Source: Clostridia bacterium (GTDB lineage Bacteria > Bacillota > Clostridia > CAKSNL01 > HGM11501). From it: a stretch of DNA of 64,000 bases. Under the pieces are notes generated by a model. The model was not told the DNA's origin. It was given only the letters and a program-made list of their open reading frames with translations, and searched no databases. Position numbers and translations under genes: made by a program. The stretch lies in contig JAFQQJ010000040.1 in assembly GCA_017411325.1 (NCBI GenBank), positions 133,659 to 197,658 on the forward strand, written 5' to 3'. Of this stretch, positions 12,011 to 40,657 are shown in pieces (the stretch's first letter is position 1; every line of letters begins with the position of its first letter).

Positions 12011-13094
12011 TTTCTCCGCCGTTTACGAAAACTTCCATTATGTATTCATCGCGGAGAATTTTAATATCGCTTACCTCACCTTTATGAACCACGCTTTCTC
12101 TTCCGGTTCTCCCAATTTCAAAGCCGTCATCGGTCATTTTAAGTAAAGGATCACTGTCTTTAAGCAAGTGATGCACTTCTTCTACGGGATAGCCGTATAT
12201 CTTGCCGTTTTTCGTGAACATCTCGCGTGGTACCGACATACAGCCCACATCTTTTTCGGCATAGCCCTGATAGTCCCATCCGGGAATCCAGGTTATAAGA
12301 AGGCTTCTCCCCTTATGGTCACGGAATATCTGACCTGCATACCGGTCGGGGCCCCTGTCCACGTTTCCGCTTAATTCTGCCTTGAATTTTCCCTTTTCAA
12401 GCTTTCCGTACATCACGTTGAAAAAGTGCTTCCAGTCAGTTTTGCACACCGATGCCGCAAGTAGTATGCACTCTCCCTCGTCAATCAGTGAAGGACATTC
12501 CGCATATACAGAATCATCCCATTCAGCAATTATTCCGCCATAATTCCAGTTAAATAAATCTTCGCTTTCGTATATAAGCAAACGGCCCTTTTTAGTTTCC
12601 TTATGTCCCGTTGCCATAACAAGGCGGTATTTTCCGTCTATAAAGCAAACAGCAGGATCCCTGAAGTCAGGGCCTCCGTCTTCGGGGTAGGTTTTGATAA
12701 CGGGATTTTTTTCATACTTTTCAAAATTGATTCCGTCCTTTGAATATGCAATGCTGACAGACTGAACCGTTCCCGTTGTCACGGATGCGTAAAAAAGATA
12801 AAGCGTATCATCCTTTACGATTGCCGTTCCCGACCAGCAGCCCTCATTGTCATAGGGCTTGTCGGGTGAAAGCGCGACGGGGAGCTCCTCCCAGGAGATA
12901 AAATCCTTTGTTCTTGCGTGCCCCCAATAAACAGCTTCTTTCTTTGGAACTTCAAAGTTAGGACAATGCTGATAGAAAACGTGATAATAGCCGTCAAAAT
13001 AAACAAGACCGTTGGGATCGTTTATCCAACCCTTCTCCGGCTTAAAATGATACTTAAGCTTTTCTGAATAGTTCATAAAATTCACCTTACTCAA
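11988..13094 (-). CDS. glycoside hydrolase family 32 (beta-fructofuranosidase / sucrose-6-phosphate hydrolase-like), compact form
   Basis: GH32 signature blocks are WINDPNGLVYFDGYYHVFYQ, FRDP and the ECP acid/base motif (YAECPSL). At 368 aa its C-terminal part is shorter than usual. Confidence 0.8.
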   Translation of the reverse strand: MSKVNFMNYSEKLKYHFKPEKGWINDPNGLVYFDGYYHVFYQHCPNFEVPKKEAVYWGHARTKDFISWEELPVALSPDKPYDNEGCWSGTAIVKDDTLYLFYASVTTGTVQSVSIAYSKDGINFEKYEKNPVIKTYPEDGGPDFRDPAVCFIDGKYRLVMATGHKETKKGRLLIYESEDLFNWNYGGIIAEWDDSVYAECPSLIDEGECILLAASVCKTDWKHFFNVMYGKLEKGKFKAELSGNVDRGPDRYAGQIFRDHKGRSLLITWIPGWDYQGYAEKDVGCMSVPREMFTKNGKIYGYPVEEVHHLLKDSDPLLKMTDDGFEIGRTGRESVVHKGEVSDIKILRDEYIMEVFVNGGEIVYTVLL

Positions 13095-14328
13095 AAAGAC
13101 CTATATTTTCCCATTCCTTTTTGGGAACCAGCTTTCCGCCTGTAAGCCATACAATATGTGTGGCGTTCCCGTAATTTTCTATATCCGTAAACATCTTCCC
13201 CACACCGCCGAGGGCAACAGATGAAGATGGCTCCGCTTTTATCCTTGAAGTTTTATATAAAAGCCTTGTCAGGCTAAGGCTGTGCTCATCATCTATTGTA
13301 AAGCAACCGTCAAGCATACCTTTCATAACATTATACGCAAGACGCGAAGGGCTTGAGCACGCCAGACCATCCGCAACAGTTCCTTTTCCGAGACCGATAT
13401 CGTATACGCTGACATCGCTCCGTCCCTTTGCCATAGCAAGTGCCATACAGGGCATCTGGGTAGGCTCACCGAAGCAGCAATATACATTGTCGCCAAAGGC
13501 TTTTTTAAGACCGAAGGTTATTCCCCCGGGGCCTCCGCCAACTCCGCAGGGCAGATACACAATTAAAGGATGAGTGCTGTCCACCTTGATTTTCTTCTCC
13601 TTAAGCTGTTTTATAAGGGTTTTATACGCCGTGGAATATCCCAAAAACAAGTCCTTTGAATCCTCATCGTCAATAAAGAAGGTTTCGTCGTCCTTTAAGG
13701 CTTCACTTCTTGCCGTTTTCAACGCGGAGGTGTAATCGCCCTTAAATTCCACAACATTAACCCCGGCTCTCATAAGCTTATCCTTTTTCCACTTTTTTGC
13801 TTCCTCGGACATATAAACCGTAACATCAAAGCCAAGCTTTTTACCGGAAAGCCCGATGCTCATACCGAGATTTCCCGTTGAGCCGACGGATATTTTATAA
13901 TGAGAATAAAATTCCCTGTAATAGAAGCTGTCTATCACGTTATAATTGTCGGTTGTCTTAAGCATACCGTTTTTCATAGCAAGCTCTTCGGCATACTTAA
14001 AAACCGTATATATGCCGCCACGCGCCTTTAATGACCCGCACACCGCCAAGGAATCGTCACGCTTTACATATAAATCGCCCGGTATTTTAACATTTTCTGC
14101 TTTTTCAAGTTCCGCCTTTGTATCTTTTACAAGCTGAAGAGAGGAGTCAATTATTCCCTTTGTTTTCTTTGTTTCGGGAAAAGCAGCACGAACATAGGCT
14201 GAGAAGCGGTTAAGTCTCTCCCACGCATCGTCAATATCCTCCTGGGTAAGAATTTCTTCACCGCTTATTTTGTTGCAGTTAAAAAGCACTTCTTTCGCTT
14301 TCCTCATATCGGATATTATTTTTTCCAT
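13087..14328 (-). CDS. dsdA: D-serine ammonia-lyase (D-serine dehydratase)
   Basis: 413 aa and collinear with E. coli DsdA from memory. Shared blocks are the PLP-lysine block GSLKARGGIY, SVGSTGNLGMSIG, FFIDDEDSKDLFLGYS and YLPCGVGGGPGGITFGLK. Confidence 0.9.
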   Translation of the reverse strand: MEKIISDMRKAKEVLFNCNKISGEEILTQEDIDDAWERLNRFSAYVRAAFPETKKTKGIIDSSLQLVKDTKAELEKAENVKIPGDLYVKRDDSLAVCGSLKARGGIYTVFKYAEELAMKNGMLKTTDNYNVIDSFYYREFYSHYKISVGSTGNLGMSIGLSGKKLGFDVTVYMSEEAKKWKKDKLMRAGVNVVEFKGDYTSALKTARSEALKDDETFFIDDEDSKDLFLGYSTAYKTLIKQLKEKKIKVDSTHPLIVYLPCGVGGGPGGITFGLKKAFGDNVYCCFGEPTQMPCMALAMAKGRSDVSVYDIGLGKGTVADGLACSSPSRLAYNVMKGMLDGCFTIDDEHSLSLTRLLYKTSRIKAEPSSSVALGGVGKMFTDIENYGNATHIVWLTGGKLVPKKEWENIGLFE

Positions 14329-14388
14329 GTAGTTTTCCCCTTTCTAAAATGCCGGACGAACCAGACCATATGCCGAGCTTTTGTAATT

Positions 14389-14443
14389 ATTGCGACACAT
14401 AAGGTTTAGATGCAAACCTTTTTGGTGTCAAGTTCGTGTCAAG
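14389..14443. repeat. 55-bp direct repeat, copy a (upstream of dsdA)
   Basis: The sequence is attgcgacacataaggtttagatgcaaacctttttggtgtcaagttcgtgtcaag. By hand alignment it matches 17678-17732 at 46 of 55 positions. Confidence 0.85.
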
Positions 14444-14538
14444 TTAATACCCAAAAAATTGTTAACCCATTACAAAAATCTTTTGCTTTATCAAGCATTA
14501 TACTTTCTGCCATCTTATCACATCTATTAATTTATTTC

Positions 14539-14730
14539 AGCTAAATTTTGAACTAAAGTTCAAAACTAAATTATCTCATTTCATTCAATAGCTAAATAAC
14601 TCCTTTGGAGTAGCTAAATTAAATTCGCTTTTGTAGCTGACCGCAAGGGCAATTTAGCTACGAAGTAATTTAGCTGAACTTGTTCAATTTAGCTCGCGGT
14701 AGCGAATTTAGCTGCGTTGCCTTGCAACGC
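14539..14730. repeat. word/mini-hairpin array 1 (AGCTAAAT x3, then AATTTAGCT x4)
   Basis: AGCTAAAT occurs at 14539, 14590 and 14612. Its reverse complement AATTTAGCT occurs at 14651, 14667, 14686 and 14705. Different small stem-loops separate the words: ttttgaac-taaa-gttcaaaa, actcc-ttt-ggagt, ac-gaa-gt, gaa-cttg-ttc, cgc-ggta-gcg and gcgttgc-ctt-gcaacgc. Confidence 0.8.
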
Positions 14731-14989
14731 TCGTGTCAAGCCTGGTGAACAGTGAATAATAAGAACCATCACGAAATATAACGAAATCAAAGATTTCTAT
14801 ATTTCGGAGAACCTTGTTATGCTAAAGCATAATATAGACCTACTATTTTTCCCTTAATTTTTCACTGGATTTTCCTTAACCACTTTTCCTTAGAACCCGC
14901 GAGAATACTGAATTTTCTCGCATCCGATAGCATATGTAAATATCAAAATCGGCAAACTATTCTTTTAAATTGTATGGAATTGACACGAG
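14730..14989. repeat. about 250-bp structured repeat element E, copy 1 (MITE-like, 10-bp terminal inverted repeat)
   Basis: It is bounded by ctcgtgtcaa (14730-14739) and ttgacacgag (14980-14989). The interior matches 16769-17072. It contains the nested hairpin cgaaatata-ac-gaaatc-aaa-gatttc-tatatttcg, the hairpins ttatgc/gcataa and gcgagaa/ttctcgc, AGAACC x3 and TTTTCCTTA x3. Confidence 0.75.
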
Positions 14990-14995
14990 TAAAAG

Positions 14996-15739
14996 TTAAT
15001 AATCATAGTGTCCAAACACGCCAATTATATCATAATATTCAAAATGTCGGTCAAAGTCTAAATATAATTCTTCGCCATTCTCCAACTCTGCTACTCCCAA
15101 GTATCCACCGCTTTTAGTAAAATATAATTCATCTGAAAATGTTGGATGTTGTATTCTGTTTAATAATTCTGAATCTGCATAAACAAAGTCCTCATTTTTC
15201 ATTTGTTCTTTAATTTTCTCATCTAAAAAATTACCGCTTGCTACTTCGGATAACCCATTCGTTTCCTGCATATTCATAGCATTATTGTTATAGACCGAAA
15301 TAGTTTCATATAGTCTGACTTTGTTTATTTTCTCCATATACTTTTTGTCGTTTTCAGCAGACCAGATACACATTTCTTCTTTTTTATTTACAAGCTGTAT
15401 TGACTCTATGTTTTCAAATTCATCTTCAATTGCAAAAGAGTATCCGCCATTTCTATTATTAAAACCAAATAGCAAATTTTGCTTTATTCCCAAATAAAGA
15501 ACATTGTCTTTTATTTCATATGTATATCCAATATATGCTGTTGCACTACTTGAAGTATTGCCTATTATATGTACCGTTTCATCAGTAACATAAACTGTTT
15601 CAACACATAAAACATTTGGGCTTTCACACATATCAAACCCCAAAATTTTCCAACCATATCTTGCTGTTAAAAAAATAGCTAACTGCAAAATTAACAGAAT
15701 TGATAAAATAATTACAACTATCTTAAATATTTTCTTCAT
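14996..15739 (-). CDS. hypothetical membrane-anchored protein (islet cassette P1)
   Basis: ORF 14996..15769. The ATG at 15739 (MKKIFKIVVIILSILLILQLAIF) follows GAAAGGAG. It has one N-terminal TM helix, I see no recognisable domain, and the coding sequence is AT-rich. Confidence 0.6.
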   Translation of the reverse strand: MKKIFKIVVIILSILLILQLAIFLTARYGWKILGFDMCESPNVLCVETVYVTDETVHIIGNTSSSATAYIGYTYEIKDNVLYLGIKQNLLFGFNNRNGGYSFAIEDEFENIESIQLVNKKEEMCIWSAENDKKYMEKINKVRLYETISVYNNNAMNMQETNGLSEVASGNFLDEKIKEQMKNEDFVYADSELLNRIQHPTFSDELYFTKSGGYLGVAELENGEELYLDFDRHFEYYDIIGVFGHYDY

Positions 15740-15767
15740 TTGCAATACTCCTTTCGCAATATTCGAC

Positions 15768-15794
15768 ATTGCGAGGCATAAGGTTTAGATGCAA
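15768..15794. repeat. partial copy (left 27 bp) of the 55-bp repeat
   Basis: The sequence is attgcgaggcataaggtttagatgcaa. It overlaps the last codons and stop of cassette P2. Confidence 0.75.
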
Positions 15795-16165
15795 TTAGTT
15801 TTTCGCTTTATAATTAAATGCTTAATTACAAATTCAATCATCATAATTACTAAATAACTAATGCCATAAACAACTGTTGTAATAAAATAAGTTAATTCTC
15901 CTTCCAAATCATACCATATCTGTTTATCGACCAAACTATGATAATATAATTGTCCGTTTATACACATTCCCATCGAAGAAGCTACCAGAATGAGCAAACA
16001 ACCTATCAAAAATTCTTTTCGACTATTGCTTAAAAACAAATTCAAAATTGATACAATAAAAGTCCATATCCAAATTGTTTTCATAAAATCTGTTCCTGCA
16101 CTTCCAAAAACCACACATGGAACTAATATTGAAATGTTTATAACACTTAATAATACTTTTCTCAT
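15785..16165 (-). CDS. hypothetical small polytopic membrane protein (islet cassette P2)
   Basis: ORF 15785..16195. The ATG at 16165 (MRKVLLSVINISILV) follows GAAAGGAG. It has about 4 hydrophobic helices and no recognisable domain. Confidence 0.55.
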   Translation of the reverse strand: MRKVLLSVINISILVPCVVFGSAGTDFMKTIWIWTFIVSILNLFLSNSRKEFLIGCLLILVASSMGMCINGQLYYHSLVDKQIWYDLEGELTYFITTVVYGISYLVIMMIEFVIKHLIIKRKTNCI

Positions 16166-16223
16166 ATCAGCACTCCTTTCGACAAATTTCTCCATATAGT
16201 TCGTGTCAATTCAGGACTAAAAA

Positions 16224-16712
16224 TTATCTATCTGTCAGATAACTCTTTATTTTTTCAGAAGAAACTTTCACAAAATTATTTTTTAATTCTTCATTAGTAA
16301 AATGTATTTCTAAAAATTCTATATCCCTTATTTCTTCTCCATTTCGATAAACAGTTATGGCTCCGCTGCCGGTTGTGCCTCTCCCGGCCGGATATGTACG
16401 AATATATAAAAATTCCTTGTTAAACTGTAAATTCCTTCCGTCCTGACACCATAAATATGTTTGTTTCTCACTATATATACCGTTACAAATAACAACCGTA
16501 TATTCGTTCCCATCATTAAATGCAATATCTATCAAGGGATAATCCAATTGCCCAATTGCTTCATCAATAGGAGTATCATCAACTATCGCATTTTTTTCTA
16601 ATCTAAATTCATATTCTTTTTTTGCATTCTCAAATCCCGTTTGATAAAAAATACCGCTTGCCACAACCGTACAAAACACACATAAAACTATTAAGATTAT
16701 AAATCTTTTCAT
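16224..16712 (-). CDS. hypothetical secreted or anchored protein (islet cassette P3)
   Basis: ORF 16224..16733. The ATG at 16712 (MKRFIILIVLCVFCTVVASG) follows GAAAGGAAAG. It has a signal-like N-terminus and no recognisable domain. Confidence 0.55.
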   Translation of the reverse strand: MKRFIILIVLCVFCTVVASGIFYQTGFENAKKEYEFRLEKNAIVDDTPIDEAIGQLDYPLIDIAFNDGNEYTVVICNGIYSEKQTYLWCQDGRNLQFNKEFLYIRTYPAGRGTTGSGAITVYRNGEEIRDIEFLEIHFTNEELKNNFVKVSSEKIKSYLTDR

Positions 16713-16751
16713 TTCGCACTTTCCTTTCGCCAAAATTCGAGAATCTTATTA

Positions 16752-17072
16752 TTCGTGTCAAATCAGGAGAACAGTGAATAATAAGAACCATCACGAAATA
16801 TAACGAAATCAAAGATTTCTATATTTCGGAGAACCTTGTTACTCCGTAATAAGAACCATCACCCAACACGAAATCAAAGATTTCTATATTTCGGAGAATC
16901 TTGTTATGCTAAAGCATAATATAGACCTACTATTTTTCCCTGATTTTTTCAACTATTTTTCCTTTAACACTTTTCTTAGAACCCTCGAGAATACTGAATT
17001 TTCTCGCATCCGATAGTGTATGTAAATATCAAAATCGGCAAACTAATGTATTAAATTTTATAGACTTGACAC
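16752..17072. repeat. structured repeat element E, copy 2 (with internal tandem duplication of about 60-68 bp)
   Basis: The first 73 nt from gaacagtgaataataagaacc are identical to copy 1, and the rest is similar by eye. The block taataagaaccatcac...cggagaaycttgtta occurs twice, at 16779-16846 and 16847 to about 16906. The element is bounded by ttcgtgtcaa (16752) and ttgacac (17066). Confidence 0.75.
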
Positions 17073-17090
17073 ACTGCATACTTTATCTTA

Positions 17091-17576
17091 TTACCATCCG
17101 CGCTCTCTTCTATCTTCCCAATACTGTTCCGCAAATTCTACTGCGCCTTTCATCGCACTTTCTCTATTTTTCTTTTCCATTATATCATCGACATACATAC
17201 CAAATCCTACCGAGAGATATGCCTTGCCTTTTATACATTCACAAAAAAATTCTATATCTTCCATAGAAATATCGATTCCAATTGAAAGCTTTCTCCTAAA
17301 TTCACTTGCTGGATTTAACTTTATATATATAGCTTCTAACACCTCATCATCGTAACCCTTATTTACAAGATATTCTATTTCACTTTTTTTTGCTCTTTTG
17401 AATACAAACCAAAACTTATGCTCTAACTCATATTCATTGCCACAAAAGTTAGAATTTACCAACTCCCAACCAAGCGCCCCTTCTTTATTTAAAATTCGTT
17501 GTAATTTCTCCATATCAGGTTCTTCATCTTTTGTGTTGTTTACTTCTACATATTTCGTTTTATATTCCCAATACAT
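17091..17576 (-). CDS. hypothetical cytoplasmic protein with a DUF4177-like N-terminus (islet cassette P4)
   Basis: 161 aa. The N-terminus MYWEYKTKYVE...LNKEGALGWELV resembles DUF4177 as I remember it. The C-terminal half is unassigned. Confidence 0.5.
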   Translation of the reverse strand: MYWEYKTKYVEVNNTKDEEPDMEKLQRILNKEGALGWELVNSNFCGNEYELEHKFWFVFKRAKKSEIEYLVNKGYDDEVLEAIYIKLNPASEFRRKLSIGIDISMEDIEFFCECIKGKAYLSVGFGMYVDDIMEKKNRESAMKGAVEFAEQYWEDRRERGW

Positions 17577-17677
17577 TATACAAAATCTCCTTAATAAATA
17601 TTTTTATAAGCATCTCTCGATATATCTTTCTTTTAAAAGTTCATCCTTGAATATTAGACTTTTAATTTTCGATACAA

Positions 17678-17732
17678 ATTGCGAAGCATAAGGTTTAGAT
17701 GCAACTTATTTTAGTAGCAAGTTCGTGTCAAG
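17678..17732. repeat. 55-bp direct repeat, copy c (upstream of cassette P4)
   Basis: The sequence is attgcgaagcataaggtttagatgcaacttattttagtagcaagttcgtgtcaag. It matches 14389-14443 at 46 of 55 positions and is in the same orientation. Confidence 0.85.
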
Positions 17733-17800
17733 ACTGGGCCAAAAATTCACCTTATTTTATTCTATCACAAAATACCTGCCTTTTCAATAGAAACCGCATC

Positions 17801-19155: not shown

Positions 19156-19225
19156 CTTCAGCCATAGCCTACTAATTTACATCTTCCGGAAGGAGCAAGC
19201 CCCTTCCCTACAAACTATATATGGT

Positions 19226-19493
19226 ATAAATCCACACGCCGCAGGCGTATTTCATATTGCGAAGCAATATTTCACGCCCGAAGGGTATTTCACAATAGAT
19301 GCAGGTTATTTTAGTGATATTCCAACTTCGTTAGAGTGATATTTTTACAGAGTAAAAGTGATATTATATTTGCCATTAAACTGTGCGAAGCACAATATCA
19401 CTCGGTGTAATCCGAATATAACTGTGCAGCAATATAAACTTGCCAAAGGCAAATATAACTGAAAAAAGACATCCGAAGATGTCTTTTTTCTGG
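19226..19493. repeat. 268-bp word/mini-hairpin array unit R, copy 1
   Basis: It differs from 19608-19875 at 4 positions by hand alignment. Words are TATTTCAC x3, GTGATAT x3, ATATCAC x1 and ATATAA x3, separated by at least 9 small stem-loops. It ends in the terminator at 19462-19489. Confidence 0.9.
19462..19489. terminator. bidirectional intrinsic terminator hairpin (end of unit R copy 1)
   Basis: The sequence is aaaaaa-gacatc-cgaa-gatgtc-tttttt. Confidence 0.6.
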
Positions 19494-19607
19494 CTTTCAC
19501 GTACATAATAGATGCAGTATATTTTTAGTGAAATATCAACTTCGTTGATGTGAAATAATTTCTGTCGAAATTGTGAAATAGAAACCTAACGGTTTCTGTG
19601 AAATGAA
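19494..19607. repeat. array module S (GTGAAATA x4) between the two R copies
   Basis: GTGAAAT(A/G) occurs at 19528, 19550, 19573 and 19598. The copies are separated by atcaac-ttc-gttgat, aatttc-tgtc-gaaatt and gaaacc-taac-ggtttc. The leader cataatagatgcagtatattttta is paralogous to 19290-19313. Confidence 0.85.
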
Positions 19608-19875
19608 ATAAATCCACACGCCACAGGCGTATTTCATATTGCGAAGCAATATTTCACGCCCGAAGGGTATTTCACAATAGATGCAGGTTATTTTAGTGAT
19701 ATTCCAACTTCGTTGGAGTGATATTTTCACAGAGTAAAAGTGATATTATATTTGCCATTAAACTGTGCGAAGCACAATATCACTCGGTGTAATCCGAATA
19801 TAACTGCGCAGCAATATAAACTTGCCAAAGGCAAATATAACTGAAAAAAGACATCCGAAGATGTCTTTTTTCTGG
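19608..19875. repeat. 268-bp word/mini-hairpin array unit R, copy 2 (abuts tRNA-Leu)
   Basis: See copy 1. The terminator at 19844-19871 lies 1 nt from the tRNA CCA end. Confidence 0.9.
19844..19871. terminator. bidirectional intrinsic terminator, terminates tRNA-Leu on the minus strand
   Basis: The sequence aaaaaa-gacatc-cgaa-gatgtc-tttttt lies immediately 3' of the tRNA. Confidence 0.7.
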
Positions 19876-19961
19876 TGCCCGAGACCGGAATCGAACCGGT
19901 ACGACTTTTAACGGTCGCAGGATTTTAAGTCCTGTGCGTCTGCCAGTTCCGCCACTCGGGC
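19873..19961 (-). tRNA. tRNA-Leu, anticodon UAA, CCA encoded
   Basis: The minus-strand read is GCCCGAG-TG-GCGGAACTGGCAGACGC-A-CAGGA-CTTAAAA-TCCTG-long variable arm-ACCGG-TTCGATT-CCGGT-CTCGGGC-A-CCA. It folds as a class II cloverleaf with the anticodon loop CU-UAA-AA. Confidence 0.9.
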
Positions 19962-40379: not shown

Positions 40380-40566
40380 TTCATCCGCAGTAAAATTAAG
40401 TCATTCCCCGATAGCACTCCGCAGATGCGACAGTTCAATACATATTCTGCATTGACCCAGCAGAAAAAACGTGGCTATTTTCTCCGCTTCGGCAAAAGCC
40501 CCTTTCTTTCCCTCTTCTGCCCGAAGTTTTTACCGGAAATACTTATAGCTTTTGCGCCTCTATCTC
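40380..40566 (-). promoter_or_regulatory. lysine riboswitch (L-box) with expression platform
   Basis: The minus-strand read is AGATAGAGGCGCAAAAGCTATAAGTATTTCCGG...GGGAAAGAAAGGGGCTTTTGCCGAAGCGGAG...CTGCTGGGTCAATGCAGAATATGTATTGAACTGTCGCATCT. It contains the conserved L-box blocks GAGGCGC, AGTA, GAAAGG, GCCGAAG, CTGG, TTGAA and CTGTC. AGAT/ATCT can close P1. Confidence 0.8.
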
Positions 40567-40657
40567 TTATTTTTTTATAATTTTACCATAAACGCCATAT
40601 TTCGTCAAGTCTTTTCATCAAACTTTTTGCTTTCATATATTAAATTAACCTTTTTTC

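Follow-up and report, generated by a model that had tools for sequence, protein, structure and literature searches.

What is the structured, non-coding sequence that recurs behind small genes in the 64,000-nucleotide stretch analysed here (the window; contig C37:133659-197658 of the source genome, G000, a Clostridia bacterium; 42% G+C)? The element, called E below, occurs twice in the window, and an annotation made from the letters alone (the original prediction) had offered three readings: a miniature inverted-repeat transposable element (MITE), which it put in its headline, a cassette-associated recombination site, or a cis-acting RNA of the 3' untranslated region (3'UTR). We favour the second, and give roughly an even chance to the explanation that E is a non-coding boundary module of exchangeable single-gene cassettes in accessory-gene arrays of uncultured gut Clostridia. 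A recombination site is the best fit, since genes to either side of E assort independently of each other, and the MITE-like headline proved to be the weakest of the three options.

Both copies were found where they had been placed, in direct orientation, each starting about 7-18 nt past the stop codon of a minus-strand open reading frame (ORF; 14996-15741/15769 for copy 1, 17091-17576 for copy 2) and ending 20-60 nt ahead of the start of the next gene. Their longest exact match is the 73 nt that had been noted (14747-14819 vs 16769-16841), and copy 2 is longer because a hairpin module of 74 nt, here called B, is present twice. The absence of coding capacity was confirmed, as no ORF of 50 aa or more lies within copy 1 and a 60-aa frame at 16630-16812 merely overlaps the edge of copy 2. 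All of the named hairpins exist, including the nested one (cgaaatata..gaaatc-aaa-gatttc..tatatttcg), ttatgc/gcataa, ccgat/atcgg (14924-14952) and gcgagaa/ttctcgc, the last as cgagaa/ttctcg in copy 2 (16986-17006). The reiterated words were correct in part: copy 1 does contain AGAACC three times (copy 2 has four), whereas TTTTCCTTA, also said to occur three times, has two exact occurrences in copy 1 (the third is TTTTTCCCTTA) and none in copy 2.

Two copies that lie 2 kb apart and share 73 identical nt might be a local segmental duplication without wider meaning, an explanation that we regard as ruled out for all practical purposes. E is not a local duplication because the source genome holds eight copies, six of them beyond the window on three other contigs (C62, C36 and C4), and because at least 118 E stretches were found in the genomes of other species by an exact-pattern scan of species-representative genomes (one genome per species); in addition, the neighbouring genes are unrelated. 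The 260-nt query matched 16 of 61 genomes (the source and 60 relatives), with identities of up to 92-93% even in another family of the class and BLAST E-values down to 1e-103, a match among copies that is far beyond chance. Among the matches listed in the collection scan, all are metagenome-assembled genomes (MAGs) of uncultured Clostridia from animal guts, with the host labels Oscillospiraceae, Acutalibacteraceae, Ructibacterium, Congzhengia and others; in such assemblies, repeats may have been collapsed or broken. A profile run over the fetched loci yielded about 200 copies, of which 158 are distinct and near full length. E was not matched in IMG/VR (exact pattern), in INPHARED phage records or in PLSDB plasmid records, and no description of it was found in the literature searched, within which E is a member of an undescribed family of modular non-coding elements in uncultured gut Clostridia. 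Neither of the findings that the original prediction had named as speaking against it, confinement to two copies or a lack of conserved ends and structure elsewhere, was obtained: the copies are many, in many genomes, and have conserved ends and a conserved hairpin.

The evidence for gene shuffling comes from the behaviour of the flanks. E sits between co-directional genes on their sense strand, starting within about 20 nt of the upstream stop codon, and the neighbours run opposite to the window plus-strand form at 131 of 139 loci on the left and 126 of 132 on the right, an orientation fixed in about 95%. Arrays of the type gene-E-gene-E-gene-E occur in many genomes. The cassette genes are diverse and accessory; their products include an SLH/BspA-LRR surface protein, DMP19-like, R2K ATP-grasp, Cu-amine-oxidase N-domain, GH35 beta-galactosidase, DUF4379 zinc-finger/REase-like, Fic/DOC and DUF2971 proteins, and many proteins without a Pfam match. 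For 136 loci both flanks were available: 45 pairs have the upstream 300 nt in common and 18 the downstream 300 nt, while not a single pair shares both (locus pairs are not independent of one another), and the shared block is gene-sized (0.2-1.3 kb) in 16 of the 19 cases with enough sequence.

In gene sense, E reads as an optional inverted repeat, a promoter-like block, a covarying hairpin with GGGTTCT, an A-rich spacer, the core, CTTGACA and the leader of the next gene, and the breakpoints can be placed on this order. Pairs with 98-99% identical upstream genes remain identical through the 5' part of E as far as GGGTTCT and then break in the spacer; those with 97-99.7% identical downstream genes are identical from TATTATTCAC (/CTTGACA), with B present in one partner and not in the other. 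Averaged over pairs, linkage to the upstream gene extends across the 5' inverted repeat and the conserved block (0.73-0.81 vs 0.34-0.63 in random pairs; 0.75-0.79 vs 0.34-0.53 when given for the 5' part) and is gone by the spacer, and linkage to the downstream gene holds from CACGAG onward (0.84 vs 0.61). Breakpoints fall at the boundary between gene and E as well: a gene with 92-94% identity among three genomes has behind it a short E lacking the 5' repeat, a long E or a truncated E. In a different example, a full E, the next gene and the first 120 nt of the following E are common to the source genome and a genome of another family. As judged from these alignments, E behaves as a recombination (gene-shuffling) junction whose flanking genes assort independently; its 5' part appears partly linked to the upstream gene, in the manner of an integron attC site, and linkage to the downstream gene appears to start at CTTGACA.

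A further property is modularity. E measures about 180-320 nt and has a basic form of about 180 nt, which accounts for 97 of the 158 copies; one insert of 72-75 nt is present in 53, two in 7 and four in a single copy, invariably following the same column. Module B is thus present in 61 of 158 copies at a single fixed site, as 0, 1, 2 or 4 units, and comparison of the copies shows the core to be the fixed insertion point for 0-4 copies of B. The module consists of the nested hairpin and the ttatgc/gcataa hairpin with AGAACC ahead of each, and each unit is bounded by the word pair GGTTCT and TATTA. In gene sense, the basic E begins with (TTTTA)CTCGTGTCAAGTC-CATACAATTTAAAAGAT, followed by TAGTTTGCCGATTTTGATATTTACATATACTATCGG, by GCGAGAA-N9-TTCTCGC and by GGGTTCT, and goes on with the variable A-rich spacer, AATAGTAGGTCC abutting TATTATTCACTGTTC, a variable hexamer and CTTGACA-CGAG, after which comes the leader of the next gene. 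Invariance is highest in the quasi-palindromic core that surrounds the B site, TAGTAGGTCC and TATTATTCACTGTTC; the spacer varies even between otherwise near-identical loci. The 5' half, outside the scan pattern, contains TAGTTTGCCGAT and ATATTTACATAT, and the 3' motif (..CTTGACACGA..) also stands alone at junctions without E, three of them in the window (14433, 16200 and 17722). Similar words recur at the module ends, GGGTTCT after the core hairpin, GGTTCT at the end of each B and GGTCC before the B site, each followed by TATTA or an equivalent, and this repetition suggests defined crossover points. The coordinates of all parts are collected in Table 1.

Table 1. Parts of E in the window, related motifs, and the RAYT-like ORFs of the source genome (S5, the 3'-end inverted repeat in gene sense)
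Feature	Position	Strand	Remarks
E copy 1	14730-14989	minus (sense of flanking genes)	one B module; 92-93% identity to copies in other genomes
3'-end inverted repeat (gene sense) S5, CTTGACACGAG plus variable hexamer	14730-14746	minus	downstream-gene linkage begins here
Invariant core, one half: window plus strand GAACAGTGAATAATA, gene sense TATTATTCACTGTTC	14747-14761	minus	highest information content in 158 copies; B inserts at its edge
Module B, 74 nt, nested and second hairpin	14762-14835		same column in 61/158 copies; also found outside E
Invariant core, other half: AGACCTACTA, gene sense TAGTAGGTCT	14836-14845	minus	
Variable pyrimidine-rich spacer (A-rich in gene sense), ending in TTAGAACCC; TTTTCC(C)TTA words	14846-14898	minus	linked to neither flanking gene
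Conserved hairpin GCGAGAA-N9-TTCTCGC	14899-14921	minus	99.3% of cells paired, 2 compensatory pairs
Conserved block, gene sense TAGTTTGCCGATTTTGATATTTACATAT..TATCGG; CCGAT/ATCGG stem; -35-like TTTACA, TTGCCG	14922-14962	minus	
5'-end inverted repeat (gene sense) CTCGTGTCAAT	14979-14989	minus	just past upstream stop codon; in 86/143 family members
E copy 2	16752-17072	minus	two tandem B modules
Two tandem B modules of copy 2	16784-16922		
Copy 2 conserved hairpin TCGAGAA-N9-TTCTCGC	16985-17007	minus	outermost pair lost
Solo S5 motif TTCGTGTCAATTCAGGA	16200-16216	minus	gene junction without E
Solo S5 motif, upstream islet edge	17722-17738	minus	2-3 nt from 13-bp direct repeat
Solo S5 motif upstream of dsdA	14433-14443	minus	beside M1 motif
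RAYT-like ORF	C28:36488-37051		
RAYT-like ORF	C14:188072-188581		
RAYT-like ORF	C56		
RAYT-like ORF	C14:83707-84192		

Single-strand folds of copy 1 form every named hairpin and close E via its terminal inverted repeat, and conservation of the pairing was tallied in an alignment of 64 sequences (A1, gene sense) and in a set of 149 copies. In the GCGAGAA/TTCTCGC hairpin, two pairs switch jointly to GCAGGAA/TTCCTGC in 17-19 of the 64 sequences, a double switch that was probably one historical event. Its one-sided changes are G-U pairs in gene sense in 14 of 14 cases in the 64 sequences, and the 149 copies contain 998 Watson-Crick pairs, 32 G-U pairs in gene sense, 8 in the opposite sense and 5 other combinations. 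RNAalifold predicted this hairpin solely on the gene-sense strand and nothing on the opposite one. The asymmetry points to a function on the sense strand, as RNA or as single-stranded DNA; a transcription-linked mutation bias could contribute to it. The predicted 3'UTR RNA receives partial support from the G-U changes. The terminal helix of 11-13 pairs is 87% paired in the 64 copies, with the inner 7 bp invariant and the outer 4 bp often unpaired, and the CCGAT/ATCGG stem is paired in 83% of cells and lost in divergent subfamilies. Compensatory change among the 64-149 members is confined to the gcgagaa/ttctcgc hairpin and the hairpins of module B, and the description of E as densely structured therefore holds for B and only in part for the core.

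The stems of B have been swapped whole with pairing kept (CGAAATATA/TATATTTCG vs CCCAACA/TGTTGGG; TTATGC/GCATAA vs TTGTGC/GCACAA vs TTACGC/GCGTAA). An analysis of strand bias in these hairpins from a MAFFT alignment was uninformative, as their outer stems were misaligned. Outside E, the module occurs as a hairpin, AACGAAATCAAAGATTTCT, whose outer stem varies, in three settings: immediately ahead of 5S rRNA genes, immediately behind TGnTATAAT boxes, and in the middle of arrays in which the word CGATAT is inverted to ATATCG. The B-like loci outside E are L215 (G144:C1, three copies), L226, L224 and L231, and L220, L221 and L235. Because B-like hairpins follow TGnTATAAT boxes and precede a 5S rRNA gene, B elsewhere appears to be a hairpin of RNA context, and the orientation of these hairpins conflicts with the sense-strand bias of the core hairpin. 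Rfam gave no match on 14730-14989 or 16752-17072, at the gathering threshold or at E <= 1, and none on B-like hairpins elsewhere.

E-containing arrays behave as polymorphic insertions that close relatives lack at the corresponding loci. A close relative of the same genus, with a 97% identical GH32 gene, is without window positions 13091-17753, comprising dsdA, four small genes and both E copies. A 13-bp direct repeat, AAAATTCACCTTA, flanks this 4.65-kb segment in the source genome (repeat copies at 13078-13090 and 17741-17753) and duplicates the GH32 ribosome-binding site; the relative has one copy, which serves as the ribosome-binding site of its GH32 gene. At one end of the segment, 2-3 nt further in, stands a solo CTTGACACGAAC motif. 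Since the relative lacks the whole segment, the insertion includes dsdA and is more than the 3.3-kb AT-rich islet. At a variable hot spot on C36 (189678-191329), a segment of 1.65 kb, two genes with E between them, is lodged between a resident terminator-plus-promoter and its gene; it is absent in two relatives, which have 18-74 nt there, and is represented by a different single gene in a third. No site differing by E alone was found, as the relatives lack whole multi-gene segments, and no syntenic relatives of the C4 locus were found within the genus.

Two side observations follow. In a same-genus relative (G002:C506:13045-13350, vs window 14330-14350) an extra membrane ORF of about 95 aa lies between dsdA and the leader, with the ribosome-binding site AGAAAGGG on both sides, and is the second instance of a gene lodged between ribosome-binding site and start codon. 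The motif ATTGCGAnnCATAAGGTTTAGATGCAA (gene sense TTGCATCTAAACCTTATGnnTCGCAAT) is present at 14389-14415, 15768-15794 and 17678-17704 and at about 20 other places of the genome, upstream of genes and at both edges of word-hairpin arrays, often preceded by CTTGACACGAACTTGACAC.

Does E also serve expression of the genes that it separates? It probably carries a sense promoter driving the next gene, with a predicted transcript start at or within the conserved hairpin. A promoter-like site was found in 137 of 149 copies, in the main subfamily as TTTACA-17-GAAAAT, of which the -10-like GAAAAT falls in the hairpin adjoining the conserved block. In a subfamily that has lost 7 nt between these hexamers, TTTACA again has a spacing of 17 nt, but to another hexamer, TAAYAT, which reads CAGTAT in the main form, and the most divergent subfamilies have TTGCAA-16/17-TATAAT or TAAAAT and have lost the CCGAT stem. 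This apparent preservation of spacing is the sole evolutionary argument for a promoter. A site on the antisense strand, GTGTCA-16-AATAAT, is equally conserved (139/149). As a -35 box of a standard promoter for the next gene, TTGACACGAG was rejected as a general reading: it lies only 31 nt from the ATG in some copies, and a -10-like AATGAT at 18 nt is found in just 36 of 149. Readings of the leader as a sigma-H, sigma-E or extracytoplasmic function (ECF) sigma promoter were rejected on spacing, by inspection. TGTCGAA, a Spo0A box, stands 10-20 nt past CTTGACACGAG in most cassette leaders, often in tandem (e.g. window 16715-16725; A1 columns 225-235); in some copies TTGACA-18-AATGAT would put it over a -10, and a spo0A gene is located at C12:21419-22177.

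The search for an enzyme that moves E produced one lead. The source genome encodes 4-5 paralogous RAYT-like HUH Y1 proteins of about 170 aa (motifs KGYDYS, PNHIH and SFHDHIIR), which score 67-68 bits on NF047646 against a cut-off of 80. Such genes are found in 7 of 12 E-positive and 6 of 48 E-negative relatives, which are not independent of one another, and five nearly complete E-positive genomes are without one. Those at C28, C14 and C56 are flanked by coding sequence, without E or B, and a RAYT-like protein as the enzyme of E is a lead only. No parent insertion sequence (IS) with the ends of E was found in the source genome, the genome to which that search was confined. The sole kb-scale inverted motif pair, TTTCGTGTCAA at C37:87481/89202, was rejected as a candidate: it flanks a Gfo/Idh/MocA oxidoreductase gene, and one motif of the pair, if not both, is the -35 box of a consensus promoter. 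Tyrosine-recombinase-like matches are on contigs other than those of E, one of them on C6, which has an M1-motif array, more than 30 kb from the array.

Several results count against a cassette boundary and must be set beside the evidence for it. The pattern of the collection scan was taken from the 3' end of E, and every copy found by that scan therefore has that end, a sampling bias. The 5' inverted repeat is absent from 40% of copies. Many junctions in E-containing arrays are without an E. The spacer shows linkage to neither flank, and breakpoints lie at several places including the boundary between gene and E, as homologous recombination among mosaic repeats would also give. Promoter-like matches at the stringency used (9/12) are no commoner than in shuffled sequence. 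The source genome has no integron integrase (the best match to IntI TIGR02249 reached 62.8 bits against a cut-off of 265, and all matches are generic tyrosine recombinases), no motif array there has a tyrosine-recombinase-like match within about 30 kb on its contig, and no recombinase domain was detected in ten ORFs scanned in or beside a 20-kb array of another genome, an array bounded by housekeeping genes. Compared with attC, finally, E is strongly conserved in sequence and does not form one long imperfect, bulged hairpin but 11-13 terminal pairs with separate local hairpins.

How the shuffling would come about is a separate matter. The short words GGTYCT and CTTGACA may be the crossover points of a trans-acting recombinase encoded elsewhere and probably reading the sense strand, which we rate a little short of an even chance; alternatively, and with a clearly smaller though still substantial likelihood, the conserved blocks may be plain substrates of homologous recombination, since recombination between blocks of 25-70 nt would give a similar mosaic. 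In a rival explanation of the whole, which we hold to be somewhat unlikely, E is a mosaic repeat of the BOX/Correia/ERIC type, selected for expression by an outward promoter, a stabilising 5' hairpin and purine-rich leader words resembling a Shine-Dalgarno sequence; shuffling would be a by-product that arises when dispersed copies undergo ordinary homologous recombination following gene transfer, without a dedicated recombinase. Modularity in the style A-Bn-C with 0-4 central units, blocks long enough to recombine, breakpoints at the edges of these blocks, the sense-strand G-U bias, the lack of a recombinase nearby, and the sense promoter-like site with its preserved spacing and the consensus TATAAT of divergent subfamilies would all agree with it. 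It leaves unexplained the single fixed insertion point of B with its flanking word pair, the solo CTTGACACGA motifs at junctions without E and the strict orientation, and a 9/12 promoter match is the background level for the region. We consider it unlikely that E belongs to a capture system analogous to the integron but without its integrase. In such a system, one trans-acting enzyme, for which the RAYT-like proteins co-occurring with E would be candidates, would insert both cassettes and gene-less hairpin units by reading the hairpin and GGTYCT/CTTGACA on the sense strand, and the units would be single-gene cassettes, module B and perhaps word-hairpin arrays of the Gut-1 type.

The two remaining explanations are improbable. 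E might be a small antisense RNA gene, or a convergent sense/antisense pair, in which GTGTCA-16-AATAAT at the left end of the window plus-strand form fires against the cassette genes, B supplies the 5' hairpins of the RNA and the CU-rich TTTTCCTTA words act as anti-Shine-Dalgarno sequences. The conservation of this promoter-like site, the stronger folding of the plus strand (z = -5.5 vs -2.0 for the sense strand) and the B-like hairpins outside E, which in the same orientation come right after TGnTATAAT boxes and before a 5S rRNA gene and so lie in transcribed RNA, speak for it. On this strand, however, the one-sided changes of the core hairpin become A-C mismatches (32 vs 8) and RNAalifold finds no consensus structure, there is no terminator and no Rfam match, and the 'TATAAG/TATAAT + AACC' beside B can equally be read as a recombination core, GGTTCT followed by TATA. 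Slightly more improbable still is a classic MITE, non-autonomous, mobilised by a transposase encoded elsewhere and inserting at TA. Its attraction lies in the terminal inverted repeats of 11-13 nt, paired across 64 copies as described above, in a TA ahead of the 5' repeat in 59 of 86 copies and in the multi-copy spread across families. It is unlikely because 40% of copies lack the repeat at one end, no target-site duplication was found (flanking dinucleotides match in only 9 of 86 copies) and no parent IS has the same ends in the source genome; the fixed orientation, the 3' repeat standing alone at junctions without E and the finding that none of 63 flank-sharing pairs has both flanks in common, whether E is present or not, argue in the same direction.

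Should E prove to mark true cassette boundaries, a large, mostly uncultured fraction of the gut microbiota of animals would assemble and exchange single accessory genes, with surface proteins, glycosidases, toxin/immunity and defence genes as cargo, by a route that is missed by IntegronFinder, by IS and MITE finders and by Rfam. The invariant 25-nt core and the end motifs provide a sequence handle for finding such arrays, listing their cargo and seeking the enzyme by co-occurrence. One word-plus-hairpin grammar would join the boundary element, the 74-nt module and the Gut-1-style arrays, and the nature of Gut-1-type arrays becomes more testable. A capture system, if true, would add a new class to the known cassette systems, and this in a phylum without a complete integron in the 2016 survey (PMC4889954).

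The cassette-boundary explanation makes integrons the obvious comparison. Integrons with their attC sites, including clusters of attC sites lacking integrases (CALIN; PMC4889954), resemble E in that they form arrays of co-oriented, mostly small and diverse accessory genes, in which a structured non-coding site with short inverted repeats at both ends follows a single ORF directly on its 3' side, in one fixed orientation, shows partial linkage to the gene upstream and separates neighbours that assort independently; CALIN, like E arrays, have no nearby integrase. All Firmicutes genomes lacked complete integrons in the survey of Cury et al. (2016; PMC4889954). The ends of E are (CTC)GTGTCAAG and CTTGACAC(GAG), not RYYYAAC/GTTRRRY, the source genome is without IntI, many junctions have no E, and E holds an internal insertion site for B. 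Because the defining features of attC are lacking despite an attC-like position and behaviour, E should not be filed as an integron.

Gut-1 RNA motifs (RF01706) come from the same host group as E and likewise alternate a constant short word with variable mini-hairpins, and module B is at the centre of such word arrays in other genomes; unlike them, E and B give no match to the Gut-1 model even at E <= 1, and the words and hairpins differ. In the window, Gut-1 matches lie in the same islet as E, at 19224-19295 and 19606-19677 (minus strand), with weaker hits on both strands at 19302-19843, within a 382-bp tandem duplication directly behind tRNA-Leu(taa) (19873-19961); a lysine riboswitch (112 bits, minus strand) occupies 40404-40570. 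REP/BIME sequences with their RAYT proteins share with E the word-plus-hairpin grammar (AGAACC before each hairpin, plus strand), the clustering and the position at the 3' ends of genes, and RAYT-like proteins are encoded in the source genome and, in the counts given above, co-occur with E. The differences are that these RAYT-like genes fall short of the NCBIfam cut-off, have neither E nor B at their flanks and are absent from five nearly complete E-positive genomes; the relatives, moreover, are not independent samples.

Pneumococcal BOX (boxA-boxBn-boxC), Correia/NEMIS and ERIC elements are intergenic, about 100-300 nt long and modular, with stable predicted folds and, in Correia, possible promoter content. 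Compared by description, they share with E the conserved, partly complementary ends and the variable number of a central hairpin unit, as well as intergenic position, size, folding and possible promoter content. E differs from this type by its strict orientation, its tie to shuffling accessory genes, its 80-93% identity across families and the lack of a TA duplication, and the streptococcal hosts of BOX belong to a different class. E thus resembles attC in position and behaviour and the BOX type in build.

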